Position numbers and translations under genes: made by a program | The notes under the pieces: model-generated | Seen by the model: only the letters and a program-made list of their open reading frames with translations | Database searches by the model: none | Told to the model about the DNA's origin: nothing | NCBI GenBank assembly: GCA_015661075.1 | Contig: JACVQJ010000003.1 | Location: 28,623-92,622, forward strand | Reading direction: 5' to 3' | Length of the DNA: 64,000 bases | Origin: Parachlamydiales bacterium | GTDB taxonomy: Bacteria; Chlamydiota; Chlamydiia; Chlamydiales; SM23-39 | Part shown: positions 1,891 to 62,651 of the stretch, piece after piece | Layout: each line of letters starts with the position of its first letter | How positions within the stretch are numbered: position 1 is the stretch's first letter

Positions 1891-3801
1891 ATGCGATTAC
1901 TGATTCAGGCAGCTCTCAGAAACACTCGTCATTTAACGCTGGCTCTATGTACATTTTTTACGCTGATCTTTTTGACCGTCGCCAATCAGTGTGAGATGTT
2001 TTCCGTCGGCCTGATGGCCAATACCGGAGCTGATTTTTTCTCGCTTTTTGGCCCGGATGATCGAGGGCAAGTCAAAAAAATCCGCTTTGGAGAGGTTGTT
2101 CAGCGCTGGGAGCTCATTGATCAAAATCACGACGGGGCGATCAGCAAACAGGACGCCGCCATTTATATGGCGCAGCGCAAGGGATCCAATCCATTGGGCT
2201 GGGTCATGCATCGCGTTGCCTCCCATTTCGATATCGATGAAAATTTCGTCATGTTAATCGCGATTTTGGCCGCTGTGGCTCTTTTTAAGGCCGCCACGCT
2301 CTTTATTTCGCGCTATGCGACTCAACTGCTCGCGATACGCATTACACGCGATTTGCGCCAGCAGTTCTTTGAACATATCCAGTCTCTTCCCATGAGCTTT
2401 TATCAGGAGCATAATCTGGGCAGCCTGAGCTCGCGGGCTGTCGGCGACGCCGGTCAGATTGCCATGTCGATTAATTCATTGCTGACTAACTATTTACAGA
2501 CTCCTTTCACTCTTATTTCGACACTGGCCGCCTGTTTTTATCTTTCCTGGCAATTATCGATGGTGATTTTTCTGGGATTACCTCTCATCGTGCTGCCTGC
2601 CGTTATATTGACGCGGCAGGTCAAGAGAATCACCCGGCAGCTGCAAAAGAATCAGGAGCGGTTTTCATCAGTTTTATTGGATTTTCTTGCAGGGATTCAG
2701 ACAGTCAAAATTTTTGCCATGGAAGGTTTTTCGCTGCGCAAATACAAAGAGCAGAACGACCAGATGGCTGCGCTGGAGAGTCAGAGCGCCAAGTATAATT
2801 TGTTGACGCGCCCGGTCATGCATCTCATTGCGACAGCCTGTTTGGCCATCGTTGTTCTTTTTGGGCTGTATACTCTTCGAATGACCGTCGGGCAGCTGCT
2901 GATGTTTTGCGGCTTGCTCCATCTGTTTTATGAACCGGTCAAGAAGTTCGCTGAGGAAAATGCCAACGTTCAAAAAGGGGTGGTGGCAGCGGAGCGCATG
3001 TTCGAGGTGCTAAATCTCAAGCCACAGATTCAGGATCACGATGGCGCGATCCACATGGATCAATTTAATACCGCCATTGAGTTCGATCGCGTTTCTTTCA
3101 AATACAACAATGATTGGGTCATACGCGATCTCAGCTTCAAGGTCAAAAAAGGGGAGGTCGTTGCATTAGTCGGGGCGACCGGCGCCGGCAAATCGACCAT
3201 CGTTCAGTTATTGCCCCGCCTCTATGAGGTGCAGGAAGGGGAGATTCGCATCGATTCCACCCCGATCGAGACTTTGAGTCAAAAATCTCTGCGCGAGCAG
3301 ATTGCCTTTGTGCCCCAGCGGCCGTTTTTGTTTTATGATACCGTGGCCGCCAACATCGCCTTCGGGCGCTCCTATAGCCGAGAAGAGATCGAAGACGCTG
3401 CGAAAAAGGCGTATGCGCATGAGTTCATCGTCGATCTGCCCAAAGGATACGATACCCTGCTCGCTGAGATGGGCAAGAGCCTCTCCGGCGGCCAGCAGCA
3501 GCGCTTAGCCATCGCCCGCGCTCTTGTGAAAAAAGCGCCGATTCTGGTCATGGACGAGGCGACATCCTCTCTCGATGCGATCAGTGAAAGCCGCATTAAG
3601 CGGGCCATTCAGGATCTACAGGGAGAAGTGACGCAAATTCTCATCGCGCATCGCCTTTCGACGATCGAGCATGTCGATCGAATTATCTTTCTCGAAAAGG
3701 GCCGTAAAATCGCTGAAGGCTCCAAGGAAGAACTATTACAGACCTGCCGGCCGTTCCGCCTTATGTGGGAAGCGTATCATCAGAGTTCTGTTGAGGCATA
3801 G
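1891..3801 (+). CDS. ABC exporter, fused permease-ATPase (MsbA/lipid-export-like) with an enlarged TM1-TM2 loop
   Basis: 636 aa. A six-TM exporter domain is followed by an NBD with Walker A GATGAGKST, signature LSGGQQQR, Walker B ILVMDEATS and H-loop IAHRLS. Confidence 0.9.
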   Translation: MRLLIQAALRNTRHLTLALCTFFTLIFLTVANQCEMFSVGLMANTGADFFSLFGPDDRGQVKKIRFGEVVQRWELIDQNHDGAISKQDAAIYMAQRKGSNPLGWVMHRVASHFDIDENFVMLIAILAAVALFKAATLFISRYATQLLAIRITRDLRQQFFEHIQSLPMSFYQEHNLGSLSSRAVGDAGQIAMSINSLLTNYLQTPFTLISTLAACFYLSWQLSMVIFLGLPLIVLPAVILTRQVKRITRQLQKNQERFSSVLLDFLAGIQTVKIFAMEGFSLRKYKEQNDQMAALESQSAKYNLLTRPVMHLIATACLAIVVLFGLYTLRMTVGQLLMFCGLLHLFYEPVKKFAEENANVQKGVVAAERMFEVLNLKPQIQDHDGAIHMDQFNTAIEFDRVSFKYNNDWVIRDLSFKVKKGEVVALVGATGAGKSTIVQLLPRLYEVQEGEIRIDSTPIETLSQKSLREQIAFVPQRPFLFYDTVAANIAFGRSYSREEIEDAAKKAYAHEFIVDLPKGYDTLLAEMGKSLSGGQQQRLAIARALVKKAPILVMDEATSSLDAISESRIKRAIQDLQGEVTQILIAHRLSTIEHVDRIIFLEKGRKIAEGSKEELLQTCRPFRLMWEAYHQSSVEA

Positions 3802-4999
3802 GCATCTTTAAACAGACGACCATTGCTGAGATGTTGTCGGTCGATCCTGCATTATAGGCGGATATGACCGTAATGCTGGCCATATTCGCGCAATCTCTTG
3901 CTCCATATGAACGGATCGCATTGGCTAATTCAACGCTGGATACGACGTCGGTCACTCCGTCGCAAACGAGGTAGAGATATGTTTCATTTGTTAATTTGTG
4001 AATGGGTACGCGCGTAATGACCGGCCGTGCGCTAATGCCATGAATGTAAATATCGCCAATCGCGCCGGCGAGCGCCAGGTTCCCCGTCGAGCCCGAGATG
4101 CGGAAAACATCATGAGATTTCTTGGCAATGATGCCGCCGCGCTTGAGTATGCGGCGTGTAAAATGGGTGAAATAGCGAGTATCATTGAGCGTGATGGGCC
4201 AGATTTGTTCTTCACGATCATTGCATTGAGCGGGCTTCATATCTTCAGTTAAAGCCGTGATTCTGTCACCGCTCTCATCGATGAAAATTCTTGTATCGCC
4301 GCTGTGGGCCACCCAGAGCTGGCTGTCAATAATCAATGCGATGGATGCAGCAGTTCCGGAATTGTCCCTGATCTGATCATTCAGTGTCACAAACGTGCGT
4401 TTCAGGGCATTCCAAATGATCGGATCTATTGGCCCATCGGGAAAGCGCTGGCCCAGATTGTCGATTTGTATTTGGAATTGTGTACAAAAGTGATTTTTTA
4501 CGTGATTAGCGGTCTCGTTGCCGTTATGGCCGTCCAGAATGCCAAAAATCTGCGCATCATATTTCTGATGTTGAATTTCCAAGGTTGTTTGGCATGCAAT
4601 GTGTTCGTCTTCGAGTGTGATTCGATCGCCCTGAAAATGGCAATAGCCGCATTTAAATGGTCCAATTTGCAGATTTTCGAACTGAAAGATCAGTTTATTT
4701 TCTCTAAATAGCTGATCCATTTCTTGAAAATGTATCCTCAAAACGTTGTCTGCACGGAATGGAATGGATTTTTTCTGGAGAATTAGACCTCGGCGGTTTT
4801 TGTGGTCGCAATGCATGGCCTCATTGGCTGCGATCAGTTGTTTGGGCAGGCTCCGAGCGATATGATCCCAACATTCAATGCGGCGATTATAAGCGATTGA
4901 TCGGAAGGTTGTCGAATCATCATTGTATTGAGCAGCAAATGTAGTGATTGGCGATGGCATAATAATAATTTTTTTGATTTTTGAATGGTAGTTTTGCAC
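3761..4999 (-). CDS. PPM/PP2C-type Ser/Thr phosphatase with ~100-aa N-terminal extension
   Basis: PP2C motif series: ..GDRITLEDEH.., ..GILDGHNGNE.., ..GTAASIALI..LWVAHSGDTRIF.., ..LYLVCDGVTDV.., ..GSTDNISAMVV. No signal peptide. Alternative start at 4960 (MPSPITT). The 3' end overlaps the convergent ABC gene by 41 nt. Confidence 0.8.
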   Translation of the reverse strand: MQNYHSKIKKIIIMPSPITTFAAQYNDDSTTFRSIAYNRRIECWDHIARSLPKQLIAANEAMHCDHKNRRGLILQKKSIPFRADNVLRIHFQEMDQLFRENKLIFQFENLQIGPFKCGYCHFQGDRITLEDEHIACQTTLEIQHQKYDAQIFGILDGHNGNETANHVKNHFCTQFQIQIDNLGQRFPDGPIDPIIWNALKRTFVTLNDQIRDNSGTAASIALIIDSQLWVAHSGDTRIFIDESGDRITALTEDMKPAQCNDREEQIWPITLNDTRYFTHFTRRILKRGGIIAKKSHDVFRISGSTGNLALAGAIGDIYIHGISARPVITRVPIHKLTNETYLYLVCDGVTDVVSSVELANAIRSYGARDCANMASITVISAYNAGSTDNISAMVVCLKMPMPQQNSDDTLPT

Positions 5000-7332: not shown

Positions 7333-7389
7333 ATTCTCTAATAACCACTGAAGATGTGAAGGATGTTGATTTGGGATGTTAGCCATTAT

Positions 7390-7571
7390 CTCGACTTTGT
7401 ACATTTTTAGGGCCGCCTGCCTCGCCTATTTGCCCTCTGACGTTCGACCTCTGGTCGAACTAGACGTTTATTTAATAAGGAAGGGGATAGTCAACCCCCT
7501 TCCTTATTAAATAAACGCCTCTGAGGGCAAATATTTCGAGGCCTTCGCCCCTAAAAATGTACAAAGTCGAG
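7390..7571 (+). mobile_element. family A MITE-like palindromic element, copy 1 (182 bp)
   Basis: Terminal inverted repeats ctcgactttgtacatttttaggg.. / ..cctaaaaatgtacaaagtcgag. Internal 8-bp hairpin gttcgacc-tctg-ggtcgaac and a long central hairpin. Flanked by the perfect 5-bp direct repeat attat (7385-7389 and 7572-7576). Confidence 0.9.
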
Positions 7572-26579: not shown

Positions 26580-26723
26580 TTGAACGCATTTCTTGCCGCA
26601 ATCCCACCCCTTCAGGGGTGGGTCTAGGCAAGATATTTTATTCGTGCGGTAAGCGGCTTTAGCCGCACCGCCTCCAAAAGCTACGTAAAGAATCTCCTCC
26701 TTTTAAGGAGGAGTTCTTCAAAA
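26580..26723 (-). repeat. family C multi-stem-loop repeat, copy 1
   Basis: As a reverse complement it matches 45750-45904 nearly base for base. It contains stems cccacccc/ggggtggg, gcggc/gccgc, cttgcc/ggcaag and ctcctcc/ggaggag. Confidence 0.85.
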
Positions 26724-26758: not shown

Positions 26759-26854
26759 CTCGACTTTGCAACTTTTTGGACCCGAAGGCCTCGAGATATT
26801 TGTTCTCGGAGCAAATAGACGAGGCAGGCGGGTCCAAAAAGTTGCAAAGTCGAG
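26759..26854 (-). mobile_element. family A element, short variant (96 bp) lacking the central module
   Basis: ctcgactttgcaactttttggacc..ggtccaaaaagttgcaaagtcgag. The arms are homologous to the two family A arm types. Flanking 5-mers attag / tttag match at 4 of 5 positions. Confidence 0.8.
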
Positions 26855-31291: not shown

Positions 31292-31317
31292 GTTTTTGCC
31301 ATCCTAGGAGAGTAAAA

Positions 31318-31497
31318 CTCGACTTTGTACATTTTTAGGGCCGCCTGTCTCGCCTATTTGCCCCCTGACGTTCGACCTACGGTCGAACTAGGCGTTAATT
31401 TAAGAAGGAAGGGGATAGTAACCCCTTCCTTCTTAAATTAACGCCTCAGAGGGCAAATATTTCGAGGCCTTCGGCCCTAAAAATGTACAAAGTCGAG
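31318..31497 (+). mobile_element. family A MITE-like element, copy 2 (180 bp)
   Basis: Same architecture as copy 1. Lies 26 nt from the rlmH start and 15 nt from the lgt start. Flanking 5-mers taaaa / taaag match at 4 of 5 positions. Confidence 0.9.
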
Positions 31498-39895: not shown

Positions 39896-40558
39896 ATGGA
39901 CATAGTCCTTTGCAAGGCAAGTAGAATATTTAATTGTAGGTTTTGTATCAAAGAAATATTGGAATTACTACAGATTGCAGACCGTCTTCTCGGCCCTGGA
40001 GGTTGTCCCTGGGACCGGGAACAAACGTTATTGACCCTGCAAAAATATCTGTTGGAAGAGACGCACGAGCTCATTGAGGCTATCGATCGGGATGATTCCG
40101 GGCAAATTGTTGAGGAGATGGGCGATGTATTGTTTTCTCTCATTTTTATAGGAAAATTGGGTGAAAAAGCCAATCGATTTACATTCAACGATGCGGTTCA
40201 GTGTGTTTGTGAAAAACTGATTCGGCGCCATCCCCATATTTTTGCAGGCGTGAGCGTGAATGGCGTCGATGACATCGTTCAGAACTGGGAAGCCATCAAG
40301 AAGAAAGAAAAAGAGCGGAAAACGATTTTTGAGGGGATCCCTCCCACATTGCCGATTTTGGCCCGGGCGCAAAAAATGATTGAAAAGCTTCAGCGCCACA
40401 AAAGTTCATTGGCACCCATCGGATCTGGCCAGAAAGTTTCTGAAGAGGAAGTGGCGAGACGTTTATGGGAGTTGCTGGGACAGGCCCAAAGTTCAGGGGT
40501 CGATGCCGAGTCAGCCTTGCGCCGTTATTGTCAGCAGATAAAAAACACCGGAGAGTGA
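39896..40558 (+). CDS. mazG: nucleoside triphosphate pyrophosphohydrolase MazG
   Basis: ..GGCPWDREQTLLTLQKYLLEETHELIEAI..EEMGDVLF..RRHPHIF... The true start may be TTG at 39959; only 34 bp separate ATG 39896 from the divergent gene. Confidence 0.85.
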   Translation: MDIVLCKASRIFNCRFCIKEILELLQIADRLLGPGGCPWDREQTLLTLQKYLLEETHELIEAIDRDDSGQIVEEMGDVLFSLIFIGKLGEKANRFTFNDAVQCVCEKLIRRHPHIFAGVSVNGVDDIVQNWEAIKKKEKERKTIFEGIPPTLPILARAQKMIEKLQRHKSSLAPIGSGQKVSEEEVARRLWELLGQAQSSGVDAESALRRYCQQIKNTGE

Positions 40559-40645
40559 TCCGCGGCAAAAACTGAATCCTTAAGGCTGCTACCTTCCGGT
40601 CCTGACCTGGTTCAGATTGCTTATCCCGCGAGTTCCCCGGTGAAA
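40548..40645 (-). ncRNA. ffs: signal recognition particle RNA (4.5S/SRP RNA)
   Basis: The minus strand reads ..cgcgggataagcaatctgaaCCAGGTCAGGACCGGAAGGTAGCAGCCttaaggattcagtttttgccgcgg... The capitalised block is almost identical to the E. coli 4.5S domain IV core (CCAGGUCAGGUCCGGAAGGAAGCAGCC) with its GGAA tetraloop. Flanking strands pair (tctgaa/ttcag, cgcgg/ccgcg). Ends are approximate, and the 3' end overlaps the mazG stop. Confidence 0.8.
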
Positions 40646-42987: not shown

Positions 42988-43167
42988 CTCGACTTTGTTC
43001 ATTTTTAGGGTCGAAGGCCTCGATGGATTTGCCCTCTGAGGCGTTCATGTAAGAAGGAAGGGGGTGACTATCCCCTTCCTTCTTACATGAACGCCTAGTT
43101 CGACCAGAGGTCGAACGTCAGAGGGCAATAGGCGAGGCAGGCGGCCCTGAAAATGTACAAAGTCGAG
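42988..43167 (-). mobile_element. family A MITE-like element, copy 3 (180 bp, inverted orientation)
   Basis: Same termini and modules as copies 1 and 2, but reverse-complemented. Lies 54 nt from the ruvB start and 21 nt from the dcd start. Flanking 5-mers agcat / aacat match at 4 of 5 positions. Confidence 0.9.
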
Positions 43168-43755: not shown

Positions 43756-43851
43756 TTAAAAATGGAACCCTCCTGATAATTCAGGTCAGGACGTGGGTTT
43801 ATGGGCGGGACAATCAGCCAGATTCATTCGAAATCGGTTCGATCATCCATC

Positions 43852-44130
43852 ATGAGGAAACTTTTTGTTCACTCATGGTGGGCGGTTGTGTTTTCTACGC
43901 TGTGCATCGCGTTCTATTTTCAGGCGGCGCACAGCCGCTCTACAGTGCTTTTCGATCTATCTTCGCGCATGCAGGATATGGAGCAGGAAAAGTTGATCGT
44001 CGCGCAAGAGCAGGATGAACTAAATCTCCGCCTGCAATCTGAATCCGATCCGGCCTGGATTGAAATGACCCTGATGAAAGAACTCGGCGTAGTGCCCGAG
44101 GGTTGGACGAAGGTCCATTTCCAGAAGTAA
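43852..44130 (+). CDS. FtsB/DivIC-like septum-formation initiator (bitopic coiled-coil protein)
   Basis: Start taken at MRKLFVHSWWAVVFSTLCIAFYF (a single TM). A coiled-coil follows, with the ..DPAWIEMTLMKELGVVPEG.. C-terminus typical of the family. Confidence 0.55.
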   Translation: MRKLFVHSWWAVVFSTLCIAFYFQAAHSRSTVLFDLSSRMQDMEQEKLIVAQEQDELNLRLQSESDPAWIEMTLMKELGVVPEGWTKVHFQK

Positions 44131-44177
44131 CAGTAATTTCAGCTAGCTATTCCTACCTTGCCGGCATCAGCCGTGGT

Positions 44178-44369
44178 CTTTAAGGATAGGAGTTCTTCGA
44201 CAGCTAATGGCGGGCGCTTAAAAGCGACCGATAAAATAAATAGCTCGGCTTACCCGCCCCTGAAGGGGCGGGATTGCGCTTCGAGCAAGCTGTTCAAAGG
44301 CACTTGTGATGGGAAGCTGTGCTGCTTAGAAGTGACCAGATGCCTGGAACGACAAAGAAAGAAAAGGGG
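44178..44369 (+). repeat. family C (diverged) + module D repeat, copy 3
   Basis: Collinear with 45750-45973. Module D (44301-44369) is nearly identical to 45905-45973. The C part is diverged, but its stems are preserved by paired substitutions. Confidence 0.8.
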
Positions 44370-44557
44370 ATTCCCTTCCCAGGAAGAGACGCGAATCCGT
44401 TTTTGATTAATAAAAGCGCAAAAACTCTCGAAAAGGCAAAAGGGACTGTTGGAAGAGGTCGTCGGCCAGAACGAGGCCGATCAGATCAGCTATCTCAATC
44501 GCGAAGAGTTGCTCGCCGTTTTCGAGACGATCTGGAAAGGCGTTTCTCAGCGTCTTT

Positions 44558-45616
44558 TCAAAAGCAAATGCGCTTGTTCAGATTCGGGATTTTTAGGGGT
44601 GGTGGTGGTGAGAGTTTTTTCTGAGTTAATTGGGAGGTAAGGCGTAAGGATTTGAGCGTTTTATTTAATTCGAATAACTCTTTTTTGTCAGCTTTAATTT
44701 GTGTGTTGATTATTGCATATTTTTTATAATGAAGCTCGCATGTATTTCTATTAGAGAGATTCTCAAATTCGAGAGTTTCAATTTGTTGAGCAACTGAATT
44801 ATTGCTAGCGGTGGAACTTGAAAAGCTATCAGTGAGCCCTTCTTTCTTATTGTCAGTTGGAGTGGGCATTATAGTTGTGCGTCGTTGGCTAAGATTTATG
44901 GGAAATTCGGACTTTTTAGGAGGGGTGGGGATATTATTTTTTTCTGAGTCATCTGAGCCAATAGGTGTTGATGAGATAACTGTTGGGGATTCGGGCATAT
45001 GTTTAATTGGCTTTAAATTTTCTTTGAGGCCTGTAATTCCATCAGTAATAACTATATGTTTATTTATATCACGGGTATAATTATCATAATGAGTATCGGC
45101 TATTTTTTGATTTAAGACCAGCGCTTCTTCGAGATCTGAAATTCGTTTTATAATTTCCTTCTCATTGGTAGGGAGGGAACTTCGAATGTCAATAGGGATC
45201 TCTTTAACGGCGCTCGATTCGTTAGTTGGAATATCCTTTTCAATTTTATCTACAATTTTTTTAGCAAGAGTTTCACGGAACAAATCTGATATCCGATTTT
45301 GCAAAATAAGCGATCCTATCTTCTTGGCGCTTTTTAGAATCATGCTATTGTCTGTTTTTTTGTCGGTAATTTTATAGGCAAGATCTACAATATCTTGAGT
45401 AAGATTGTCTAAGCCATTATCGTTATATATTTGGGTGTTTTTATCCCAGGTTTTTAACAAATGACTAAAAGCCACTTTTGCGAGGTTTCTGATCTCCTGA
45501 TTGATTTTTCTATCAAATAACGTTGAAAGTCGGATGCAAAAACGTTTAAAAAACCCAGGGATTGCAAAATTGCTAGAGTATGTTGTTAAACTAGTTGGGC
45601 TTAATGCAGGATTCAT
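44558..45616 (-). CDS. hypothetical protein (352 aa) in a visibly AT-rich segment; effector-like low-complexity protein
   Basis: Asn/Lys/Ile/Ser/Thr-rich sequence, a Pro-rich C-terminal region (..KLSPPPPLKIPNL..), no signal peptide and no TM. Composition contrasts with neighbouring genes. Bracketed by the C+D direct repeats. Confidence 0.6.
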   Translation of the reverse strand: MNPALSPTSLTTYSSNFAIPGFFKRFCIRLSTLFDRKINQEIRNLAKVAFSHLLKTWDKNTQIYNDNGLDNLTQDIVDLAYKITDKKTDNSMILKSAKKIGSLILQNRISDLFRETLAKKIVDKIEKDIPTNESSAVKEIPIDIRSSLPTNEKEIIKRISDLEEALVLNQKIADTHYDNYTRDINKHIVITDGITGLKENLKPIKHMPESPTVISSTPIGSDDSEKNNIPTPPKKSEFPINLSQRRTTIMPTPTDNKKEGLTDSFSSSTASNNSVAQQIETLEFENLSNRNTCELHYKKYAIINTQIKADKKELFELNKTLKSLRLTSQLTQKKLSPPPPLKIPNLNKRICF

Positions 45617-45749
45617 AATTAACCTCTATATTATCTATGTCTTATACATATATTATATAATAAATTAATAATAATGTAAAGGATGTAATAAGTCTTTATA
45701 TAGCGTGGTTGCGCTAAGTGTATCGCGCTTATAGTAAGCGACTTAAAAT

Positions 45750-45973
45750 GATAGGAGTTTGAAGAACTCCTCCTAGAAAGGAGGCGATTCTTTAAGTAGC
45801 TTTTGGAGGCGGTGCGGCTAAAGCCGCATACCGCATCTCATAAAATAGCTTGCCTAGACCCACCCCTAAAGGGGTGGGATTGCGGCAAGCAGTGCGTTCA
45901 ATGGCACTTGTGATGGAAAGACGTGCTGCTTAGAAGTGACCAGATGCCTGGAACGACAAAGAAAGAAAAAGGG
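45750..45973 (+). repeat. family C + module D repeat, copy 2
   Basis: Contains stems ctcctcc/ggagg, gcggc-taaa-gccgc, gcttgcc..ggcaagc and cccacccc-taaa-ggggtggg, followed by module D cacttgtgatgg..aaagaaagaaaa. Confidence 0.85.
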
Positions 45974-45995
45974 ATAAATATTAACTTCTTTGGTA

Positions 45996-46055
45996 AGGGA
46001 CTGTAATAGAGTAGAGGAGTTAAGCGATTAACTCCTCTACTCTATTACAGTCCCT
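45996..46055. repeat. perfect 28-bp-stem hairpin with 4-nt loop
   Basis: agggactgtaatagagtagaggagttaa-gcga-ttaactcctctactctattacagtccct. There is no U-tract on either side, so it is not a standard terminator. Confidence 0.9.
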
Positions 46056-46218
46056 AAGGACATCTGGAGTCGGCCGCGTCATTCCGCCTATCCATAGAGG
46101 AATGGTTCTCTTAAAACAGCTGCTCCTGCTTTCATTAGGAATTGCTGAGCCAGTTGCAAGTTTCTTGCAAAACTTTTTCTTTAGCACTAATCTACCGTTT
46201 GATTGATTCGAGGATCGA

Positions 46219-47475
46219 TTGCACGATTTGGCTCTGGTTTTTATTTTACTTTTTTTGATTTCGGGATCTGCATTACTGTCTGCATCTGAAACGGCGCTTT
46301 TTTCATTATCGCCTTTGACGCTGCGCTATTATCGCACTGCCAACGATCCGCACCAGAGACTGATCTCTCAGCTCATGGATCGGCCTCGCGATGTGTTGGT
46401 CACGATTCTTATCATGAACGTTGTTTCCAATTTGCTGATCCAAAACACCGTTTCGAGCATTTTTGATCAATTCGGCTACTGGACCCTCAAAGTGGGTCTT
46501 CCTCTTGTCCTCGTACTGGTATTTGGAGAGGTCATTCCCAAATCGATTGCATTGCCGAACAATGCAGCGATAGCTTCCAAAGCGGCACCCGTTGTCAATT
46601 CACTGATGCGATTATTCAGGCCTTTTCTCGTTCGGCTAAATAGTCTGGCCAGTTTGATTTCCCGCGTTGTTTTCTTTTTCCTGCACGAGGATGAAGAGAT
46701 TAGCGCCGACGAGCTGCGCCACGTCGTCAAGACTTCATTGGCCGGCGGCGTATTAAGCCGCCACGAGGCCGAGCTGATCGACGGCGCTTTGGATTTAAAG
46801 GACGCCACCGTGAAAGAACTCATGCGTCCGCGCGATGAAGTGCTTTTTTACGATATTCAGGAGCCGATGCCGCAGCTGATGCATCTGTTTGTCGCGCAAA
46901 AATATACTCGTATTCCCGTCTGCGATTCCCAGCTCGACAATTTGTTGGGCATCCTGTCGGTCCGGCGATTTTTCTTTCACCAGGAAAAAATACATTCCAG
47001 TGCTGATCTGGTCCCGATTTTAAAAAAACCCTATTTTGTTCCTGAAACCACTAATGGCTGGTCATTGCTCCAGACCTTGCGCGAAGCGGGCGAGGACATG
47101 GCGATTGTGGTGGACGAGTATGGCTCGATTTCCGGATTGATTACGCAGGAAGATTTGATTGAGACGGTTGTAGGGCAGATCGCCCGGCAGGATGAAAAGA
47201 GCCTATATACCCGATCCGGCGACGATGTCATCATCGCCAGCGGAAAAATGGAGATCAGCGAGTTTGAGGATCTGTTTGGCGTGAAGCTTTTGTCCAAAGA
47301 AAATCCAGTGACTTTGGGAGGATGGTTGATCGAGCAGCTGGGAGACATTCCGGCCGCCGGTACAAAATACGCCACAGATGATTTTCTTTTTTATGTTCTG
47401 GCCGCCGATCCGAACAGGATTCGAAGAATCTATGTCCGACGCATTCGCACGCCGAAAAAAGGATGGAAGCGATGA
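46219..47475 (+). CDS. DUF21(CNNM)-CBS-CorC_HlyC hemolysin-like membrane protein
   Basis: Four N-terminal TM helices, a CBS pair and a C-terminal CorC/HlyC-type domain. TTG start as listed. First of a tandem pair. Confidence 0.85.
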   Translation: MHDLALVFILLFLISGSALLSASETALFSLSPLTLRYYRTANDPHQRLISQLMDRPRDVLVTILIMNVVSNLLIQNTVSSIFDQFGYWTLKVGLPLVLVLVFGEVIPKSIALPNNAAIASKAAPVVNSLMRLFRPFLVRLNSLASLISRVVFFFLHEDEEISADELRHVVKTSLAGGVLSRHEAELIDGALDLKDATVKELMRPRDEVLFYDIQEPMPQLMHLFVAQKYTRIPVCDSQLDNLLGILSVRRFFFHQEKIHSSADLVPILKKPYFVPETTNGWSLLQTLREAGEDMAIVVDEYGSISGLITQEDLIETVVGQIARQDEKSLYTRSGDDVIIASGKMEISEFEDLFGVKLLSKENPVTLGGWLIEQLGDIPAAGTKYATDDFLFYVLAADPNRIRRIYVRRIRTPKKGWKR

Positions 47476-50720: not shown

Positions 50721-50736
50721 CGAGCATCCTTGTTAA

Positions 50737-50895
50737 CTCGACTTTGTACATTTTTAGGGCCGCCTGCCTCGCCTATTTGCCCTCTGTCGTTCGACCTCTG
50801 GTCGAACTAGGCGTTTATTTAAGAAGGAAGGGGATTAAACGCCTCAGAGGGCAAATCCATCGAGGCCTTCGGCCCTAAAAATGTACAAAGTCGAG
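50737..50895 (+). mobile_element. family A MITE-like element, copy 4 (159 bp, central stem half-deleted)
   Basis: Termini are intact. The right arm of the central hairpin is missing. Flanked by the perfect 5-bp direct repeat gttaa (50732-50736 and 50896-50900). Lies 16 nt from the PP2C start and 1 nt from the CPBP stop. Confidence 0.9.
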
Positions 50896-62415: not shown

Positions 62416-62478
62416 ATAAAATCCAGTAAAAAAATATATGCAGAAAAGTCCCCAAAGAAATGGACGACTCGAATCGAT

Positions 62479-62645
62479 GCGAAGGGCTCCACGCATTGCG
62501 TGACAGTGTTAATCCTTTCGCAATTAACACTACGGAGCTGTCTAATAATAAACTGATATGATTTCGGCGCTTATCTCCTGGACACTGCTTCCATGGCGTT
62601 GGGATGCCTCGACAGTGCTTGTTAGTAAGCGCACCTCTTCTGCGG
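62479..62645 (-). promoter_or_regulatory. candidate lysine riboswitch (L-box-like) leader of the LysP-like permease
   Basis: The minus-strand RNA gcAGAAGAGGUGCGCuuacuaacaAGCACUGUC..cagugu..uaaGCGCCGAAAuc..GUGUUAAUugcgaaaggAUUAACACUGUCACGCAaugCGUGGAGCCCUUCGC shares the order and sequence of L-box core blocks as I remember them: AGAGGUGCG, GCUGUC, GCGCCGAAG, and hairpin + ACUGUCACG + hairpin + GAGAGCC. P3 would be unusually short. Confidence 0.55.
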
Positions 62646-62651
62646 TCACTG

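Follow-up and report, generated by a model that had tools for sequence, protein, structure and literature searches.

How did an AT-rich gene without detectable relatives come to stand between two direct repeats, at a place where related chlamydiae have two adjoining genes? The question is raised by ORF352, an open reading frame (ORF) in a stretch of 64,000 nucleotides from a Parachlamydiales bacterium (assembly GCA_015661075.1, contig JACVQJ010000003.1, positions 28,623 to 92,622 of the forward strand), which we analysed as a whole and call the window. An earlier reading of the letters alone, hereafter the original prediction, had seen there a possible cassette, acquired or duplicated by recombination at a composite repeat made of two modules, C and D. 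We consider it probable that the whole interval between the flanking genes (44131-46218) is lineage-specific mobile-DNA debris, made of two head-to-tail ends of IS91/ISCR-like rolling-circle insertion sequences (IS), each with a MITE (miniature inverted-repeat transposable element) in it, and that ORF352 would be a foreign, AT-rich cargo associated with them.

A foreign gene in a conserved gene junction

The gene and its two neighbours are the following.

43801-44130, plus strand: left flank, a small conserved gene called 'ftsB-like' (tblastn, 40-52% identity in the nine related loci L001-L009)
44558-45616, minus strand: ORF352 (NCBI protein MBF8262597.1, locus tag HW387_262), an AT-rich orphan gene of 352 aa, its product predicted to be soluble and mostly helical, with a Pro/Ser/Thr-rich linker
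46219-47475, plus strand: right flank, DUF21a, a transporter gene of the CNNM/CorC type (Pfam CNNM, CBS and CorC_HlyC; synteny)

Compared with the 47 long ORFs of the 64-kb window, ORF352 has a G+C content (GC) of 0.354 and a GC at third codon positions (GC3) of 0.315, which makes it the most AT-rich segment of the window: the ORF averages are 0.496 (standard deviation 0.035) and 0.562 (standard deviation 0.059), and z is about -4 for both measures. Over the 64 kb, only the 1,200-nt windows starting at 44201-45351 fall below the mean minus 2.5 standard deviations, with a minimum GC of 0.344. Besides, ORF352 offers 355 open codons, when 2,000 shuffles of the AT-rich segment reach 75 on average and 191 at most. 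ORF352 is thus a real ORF, of a length far above chance, and it is compositionally foreign to its genome, as the original prediction had judged by eye in calling it more AT-rich than its neighbours.

The gene is also an orphan. A word-index search of 5.8 billion protein clusters and an exhaustive phmmer search of 1.84 billion representatives both returned the self-match only, and ORF352 has no match in Pfam, NCBIfam, PADLOC, the sequences of the PDB, plasmids or phages.

A scan of one genome per species yielded nine related loci of chlamydial metagenome-assembled genomes (MAGs), which are 60-71% identical on DUF21a. In all those that extend far enough the order spoIID-ruvB-dcd-'ftsB-like'-DUF21a-DUF21b is kept, and in the nine the distance from the stop of 'ftsB-like' (for which no significant Pfam or NCBIfam family was found) to the start of DUF21a ranges from -4 to +69 nt, with an ATGA-type overlap in 4/9. 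Neither ORF352 nor any part of the repeats occurs at this junction in any of the nine. Because these relatives have a tight junction without repeat and without ORF352, the whole 2,088-nt interval 44131-46218 is, on this comparison, a lineage-specific insertion. The two genes are probably co-translated elsewhere; here 2,088 nt separate DUF21a from the gene that usually precedes it, and its direct coupling to that gene is lost.

The original prediction had named beforehand two findings that would speak against it, an ordinary composition and the presence of the same gene with both repeats in all relatives; on the contrary the composition differs, and the relatives have neither ORF352 nor the repeats. 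The proposal of an inserted and foreign segment therefore stands, having for it the lack of a counterpart in nine relatives and the composition. Its details fare less well. It had expected the empty site to keep a single copy of the repeat, yet the relatives carry no repeat at all, their flanking genes abutting or overlapping; since no repeat is found at their junction, the repeats were not a pre-existing recombination site, and they belong themselves to the inserted mobile DNA, as detailed below. Likewise 44440-44557, taken for the remnant of a former resident gene, has no gene corresponding to it in the relatives: 44372 to about 44445 belongs to the inner part of an IS end, and the remaining 110 nt or so are without detectable homologue.

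These observations bear directly on a site-specific cassette or island, in which a resident att-like (attachment) repeat of about 200 bp between the two genes would have been duplicated by integration of a circle. Direct repeats bracketing a compositionally foreign gene are what it would leave, and a circle integrated at an IS end by homologous recombination would in the end look alike. However, the repeat is absent from the empty site in 9/9 relatives, so that no single att copy exists there; no integrase or recombinase ORF, no tRNA or tmRNA and no Rfam RNA target that could serve as an RNA-gene att site were found, unlike what integrase-mediated islands display; and two mobile elements make up the repeat itself. 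We regard this scenario as improbable, although it is the strongest of the competing ones.

Two unequal direct repeats

44182-44193, minus strand: left IS tip, 12 nt, AAGGATAGGAGT on the plus strand, which in the sense of the transposase is an element ending in ACTCCTATCCTT
44194-44297, plus strand: left C', a decayed member of the C family, about 29 nt missing at its 5' end, without the first hairpin, about 70% identical to every other copy
44298-44445, minus strand: left D-long, the rest of the IS 3' non-coding end, about 90% identical to positions 2023-2170 of the related locus L050
45747-45758, minus strand: right IS tip, 12 nt, AATGATAGGAGT on the plus strand
45759-45901, plus strand: right C, full-length, 5'-TTGAAGAAC...TGCGTTCAA-3', with three strong hairpins and a folding z-score of -6.2
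45902-45975, minus strand: right D-short, the outer 74 nt of an IS end, without the subterminal palindrome

The segments 44292-44371 and 45896-45975 are 94% identical over 80 nt (75/80), and 100 shuffles produced no chance match of this kind; that direct repeats flank ORF352, as had been claimed, is thus confirmed. The gapped homology spans 44209-44371 and 45808-45975. Module D proper is identical at 68/72 positions between the two copies, close to the 65 of 69 that had been counted by eye, and includes a perfect common stretch of 47 nt. Once refined, the repeat units run from 44182 to about 44445 on the left and from 45747 to 45975 on the right, the left D reaching about 148 nt and the right one 74 nt. 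A further extension of the repeat beyond D, through a shared AAGGGACTGT, was rejected as not significant, as 26/300 shuffles reach its score.

Repeats of this kind raise the suspicion of an assembly artefact, the tandem structure then resulting from a mis-join at repeated k-mers. Short-k Logan contigs do break within the repeats (at 44222, 44336 and 45825), which is expected for multi-copy sequence. But an independent ENA assembly agrees with the contig over 14.2 kb here, at 100% identity. The two copies are also unequal in length and in their C content and disagree at 5/80 positions of D, which is unlike a collapsed or duplicated repeat. An artefact is hardly credible here.

Module C, a dispersed hairpin element

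The C family was collected by one metagenome scan with the third hairpin, which gave 41 loci, to which the window copies were added. We found 32 distinct full-length copies, on both strands, all with the sharp ends 5'-TTGAAGAAC...TGCGTTCAA-3' and with flanks that are unrelated and unalignable. The element is non-coding and 141 nt long, and three copies lie in the window; the right C is 92% identical to the one at 26580-26722 (minus strand) and 94% to a copy in another locus, L019. Its termini form an inverted repeat of 6-7 nt (TTGAAG.../...GTTCAA), and no target-site duplication is detectable in the 32 copies. Compared with shuffles, C folds with z-scores of -6.2 and -8.6; the consensus holds 35 pairs, of which 6 show compensated changes, and even in the decayed C' hairpin 3 bears a compensated change, CCCGCCCC/GGGGCGGG. 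Because of these 32 sharp-ended copies in unrelated flanks and of the stable, compensated hairpins, C is by its sequence a dispersed element similar to MITEs or to repetitive extragenic palindromic (REP) sequences.

Like the Coxiella MITEs, the enterobacterial RU and ERIC, the neisserial Correia and the REP-BIME elements, C is short, non-coding and multi-copy, with sharp ends and stable hairpins. Unlike MITEs, it shows neither target-site duplication nor conserved target, it has no assigned partner transposase, and it is not in Rfam, where C+D gives no match even at E<=10. No published description of this family was found in the papers searched.

Two further observations concern this family. 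The copy at 26580-26722 stands beside a member of another repeat family; the repeats cluster in the same spacers. In the alignment of the 32 copies (A5), columns 110/123 show, on the strand displayed, an A-C mismatch in hairpin 3 of six copies; read from the other strand, the pair becomes a G-T wobble, possibly a hint as to the strand that folds.

Module D, the 3' end of an IS91/ISCR-like element

Elsewhere in the fetched DNA module D was found only in L050 (2023-2098), where the homology to the left copy of the window runs on for about 150 nt (window 44298 to about 44445); no match to D was found in viral contigs. In L050 it begins about 50 nt downstream of a frameshifted remnant of an IS91-type transposase, whose protein is 82% identical to an IS91-type transposase of the MAG from which the window comes. 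Diverged versions of this D-type 3' end lie in the loci L053/L055 and L060, each behind its own IS91-type remnant. The transposase remnants match plasmid transposases of the IS91 family (E 1e-5 to 8e-31), and relatives of these remnants carry Y2_Tnp (PF04986).

Once C is removed, the two copies of the window can be aligned with the 3' ends of four other IS up to a common tip, GTGCC(A/T)TTGAA-(A/T)YT(A/C)CTATCCTT, beyond which every flank differs; the left tip in particular aligns, C removed, to the CTATCCTT ending shared by the IS ends of L050, L053/L055, L060 and L057. As this alignment reaches the common tip across C, 44182-44193 and 45747-45758 represent the IS terminus, and each C+D repeat is, as far as homology tells, the oriIS-side end of an IS91/ISCR-like element into which C inserted 12 nt from the tip.

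The oriIS of IS91-family elements is located downstream of tnpA and has subterminal palindromes (PMC13181058). The left D-long has such a palindrome (GGATTC...GAATCC / CTTCC..GGAAG, at about 44361-44400), homologous to a perfect one in L053, together with a terminator-like site on the minus strand (44380->44361). In this the left copy resembles IS91, unlike the right copy, which is without the palindrome. The likeness to IS91/ISCR also includes the general structure, since the repeats are homologous to non-coding 3' ends of about 215 nt, found in related chlamydial contigs behind IS91-type transposase genes.

The genome itself holds a transposase of this kind. Near full-length and split into two ORFs, it lies at 3267-4744 of the locus L057 and matches Zn_Tnp_IS91, Y2_Tnp and the NCBIfam family 'ISCR clade Ia' (E 1e-48). 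L057 shares its ENA assembly with the contig of the window (L010), and the protein accessions are 74 apart from that of ORF352. Because this transposase belongs to the same MAG, the genome demonstrably hosts, by sequence, an IS91/ISCR-like family.

The 3' end of this copy in L057 belongs to a different subfamily, and close to it are found a DDE_Tnp_1 transposase gene and a partial C element. At positions 1-770 of L060 (Ga0206225_1000014) an IS91-like 3' end is, by eye, identical to that of L057 over about 118 nt; within about 10 nt of it stands a second IS91-like copy, truncated at its 5' side and in the same orientation. This is a head-to-tail nesting without cargo, and therefore such IS91-like elements do pile up this way.

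Two other assignments of the repeat parts were tried and rejected. C could have been terIS, C+D then being the ter-ori junction of a circle; but in 32 unrelated sites C is sharply bounded on both sides, and the IS tip resumes beyond it. The GTTC adjoining D could have been an IS91 target; this GTTC is the end of the inserted C, the true tip lying 12 nt beyond C.

With both modules assigned, one may ask if C+D is rather a functional structured RNA or a regulatory leader, either a small RNA or a riboswitch-like 5' untranslated region for DUF21a and for a lost gene. C folds far better than shuffles and with compensated pairs, and the right copy stands upstream of the CorC/CNNM transporter gene. 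Nevertheless Rfam gives nothing for C+D at the permissive threshold mentioned above, C occurs in at least 32 unrelated contexts and on both strands, D, a homologue of IS 3' ends, has no folding advantage over shuffles (z about -1.2), and the relatives regulate DUF21a without C+D. A regulatory RNA thus seems very unlikely.

The interval as a whole

The remaining parts of the interval are the following.

44446-44557, no strand assigned: spacer of about 110 nt, of normal GC, open on both strands
45617-45746, minus strand: region upstream of ORF352, with a ribosome-binding site, a sigma-70-like promoter and a short palindrome (promoter scan and direct reading of the sequence)
45996-46055, no strand assigned: perfect 28-nt inverted repeat with a 4-nt loop, in the extra DNA upstream of DUF21a

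Read in the sense of the transposase (minus strand), the order is the right end (D-short, C, tip), 130 nt that hold the promoter, ORF352, some 110 nt, the left end (D-long, C', tip), 51 nt and the end of 'ftsB-like'; the two IS ends are thus arranged head-to-tail. ORF352 lies directly downstream of the oriIS tip of the right copy, in the place and orientation of the variable cargo of ISCR1, the genes of which are found downstream of oriIS, in the same orientation and 0-1211 bp away (PMC6218425). As in ISCR1 (PMC6218425), the cargo lies just past the oriIS tip in the orientation of the transposase, and it is flanked by direct repeats. Unlike in ISCR1, these direct repeats are the IS ends themselves and not a duplicated integron 3' conserved segment (3'-CS), a MITE sits in each IS end, the cargo is an orphan and not a resistance gene, and the host is an environmental chlamydia.

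From these positions the following course may be proposed. C would already have been inserted 12 nt from the tip in each IS copy. ORF352 would then have arrived as foreign AT-rich cargo associated with the IS copies, either inside a non-autonomous IS91-derived unit inserted head-to-tail beside a resident copy, or on a circular intermediate that recombined into a resident IS end. Upstream of the gene, a GAGG ribosome-binding site stands 6 nt before the ATG and a sigma-70-like site, TTTACA-17-TATAAT (45680->45652, 11/12 match in the promoter scan), stands ahead of it; ORF352 may be transcribed from this promoter of its own, and its transcript would probably terminate at the IS subterminal hairpin in D-long. 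The 47-nt perfect identity of the two D copies could in turn serve as substrate for a RecA-mediated loss of ORF352, which agrees with the earlier suggestion that the repeats might support deletion; an exact look-up of the 'ftsB-like' protein gave only the same three contigs, and no excised form is on record.

Several observations weigh against mobile-DNA debris with a cargo. No IS91 transposase is left in 44131-46218 (zero tblastn matches), and over the whole window tblastn with IS91 transposases gave nothing at E<=0.1, the only matches (E 0.86-8.5) lying outside the interval. No recognisable terIS was found in the interval, which in no part resembles the upstream end of the copy in L057. GTTC/CTTG, the target tetranucleotide that abuts oriIS in characterised IS91 members, does not stand beside the IS tips, and the four outer bases differ between the two copies. 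Compared with IS91/ISCR elements, the locus is without a Y2 HUH transposase gene (PF04986, PF14319), without a recognisable terIS and without GTTC/CTTG at its tips. The spacer of about 110 nt and the segment 45976-46218 are unaccounted for. C' and C are about 70% alike while the adjoining parts of D are 94% alike, and therefore one clean duplication of the whole unit does not account for the history; either a local decay of C' or a conversion of C by other members of its family would be needed. Finally, one genome only carries the arrangement, and no intermediate states are seen. Because the interval has no transposase and no recognisable terIS, we infer mobilisation by the IS from position only.

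As for the unassigned DNA, neither IS 3' ends nor the terIS side of L057 resemble any of the spacers 44131-44181, 44448-44557, 45617-45746 and 45976-46218; for the spacer of about 110 nt, comparison with transposase, with IS ends and terIS side and with all fetched loci gave nothing. The 28-nt inverted repeat at 45996-46055 has no second copy in the window or in any fetched locus, Rfam giving only spurious matches to miRNA models. With regard to terIS, an end marked by a palindrome and a cleavage site, a 6-bp palindrome (CGCTTA-TAG-TAAGCG, 45727-45741) abuts the right tip, upstream of ORF352, and may be there by chance; no target duplication is seen at the IS tips.

ORF352 takes the slot and the orientation of the transposase of the left copy, yet is unrelated to it. 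This position suggests another origin, by which the gene was not acquired and would be a fast-evolving or de novo gene, arisen in a resident IS from AT-rich non-coding DNA or from decayed transposase DNA. Besides the exact coincidence with the transposase slot, ORF352 is a strict orphan and much of its product is predicted to be disordered or to form simple helices. Against it, the 355 codons stay open in DNA of 34% GC, far past the shuffle maximum of 191, there is no residual protein similarity to IS91 transposases, and a GC3 of 0.315 resembles neither the genome nor its IS copies, the loci of which have a GC of 0.40-0.50. We judge this origin unlikely, slightly more so than the site-specific cassette, and hold to a foreign cargo between IS ends as the probable account.

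As it stands, the locus is a well-explained case of ordinary genome plasticity, made of known parts (IS91/ISCR-type debris, a MITE and an orphan gene) rather than a new kind of cassette. It nevertheless shows, in a setting little explored, an environmental chlamydia, an orphan and foreign gene lodged in a conserved operon junction together with IS91/ISCR-like and MITE debris. The two repeat families, the 141-nt triple-hairpin element and the IS91-type 3' end, confound assembly and annotation in Parachlamydiales MAGs.

The product of ORF352

The residues K (11%), I (10.5%), L (10%), S (9%), T (9%) and N (8%) dominate the protein. No transmembrane segment is found, the maximum of the Kyte-Doolittle scale over 19 residues being 0.79, and the SPPPPLKIP motif is present, both as stated in the original prediction. 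An AlphaFold2 model from the single sequence is poor (mean predicted local distance difference test score, pLDDT, of 54.8) and gives no confident fold. Its confident parts are two long helices, 152-201 and 268-334; the N-terminal part is helical too, and a Pro/Ser/Thr linker is disordered. Among the first 30 residues 10 are Ser/Thr/Pro and none is acidic (Asp or Glu). A 45-nt direct repeat inside ORF352 (44582-44626 and 44905-44949, 78% identical) encodes two PxxPxK motifs, at residues 230 and 337.

These traits recall the lineage-specific effectors of the chlamydial type III secretion system (T3SS): an orphan protein, soluble, helical or coiled-coil, with no acidic residue in the first 30 and with two motifs of the form PxxPx[K], a likeness of composition only. 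Unlike effectors, ORF352 has no homology to known ones, and the Kyte-Doolittle profile revealed no bilobed hydrophobic domain of the Inc type. The product would be a soluble helical or coiled-coil protein with proline-rich motifs, and a secreted host-interaction protein is one possibility, a conjecture with which the features are compatible. If ORF352 proved secreted, the locus would give an example of IS-associated effector gain.

One may go further and suppose that IS91/ISCR-like elements capture and deliver host-interaction genes in environmental chlamydiae, ORF352 being a recent import whose product would be secreted as an effector, its PxxPxK motifs resembling SH3 ligands; the gene would have been carried in a 'transporter' derivative devoid of transposase, with a MITE in its oriIS end. 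We hold this extended proposal for unlikely, somewhat more so than an origin of the gene in situ; if true, it would mean that ISCR-style gene capture operates outside the world of antibiotic resistance.

Other repeats and RNAs of the window

Intergenic repeats of a second family, about 100-190 nt long and corresponding to other modules of the original prediction, stand in the window at 7386-7571, 31314-31497 and 50733-50895, with partial copies at 42988-43167 and 26759-26854. In the ruvB-dcd spacer this family includes a perfect inverted repeat of 25 nt (43039-43096); the same spacer measures about 80-100 nt in six relatives. Two structured RNAs score above the Rfam gathering threshold, both on the minus strand: a lysine riboswitch at 62474-62647 (52 bits) and a bacterial small signal recognition particle (SRP) RNA at 40543-40642 (51 bits).

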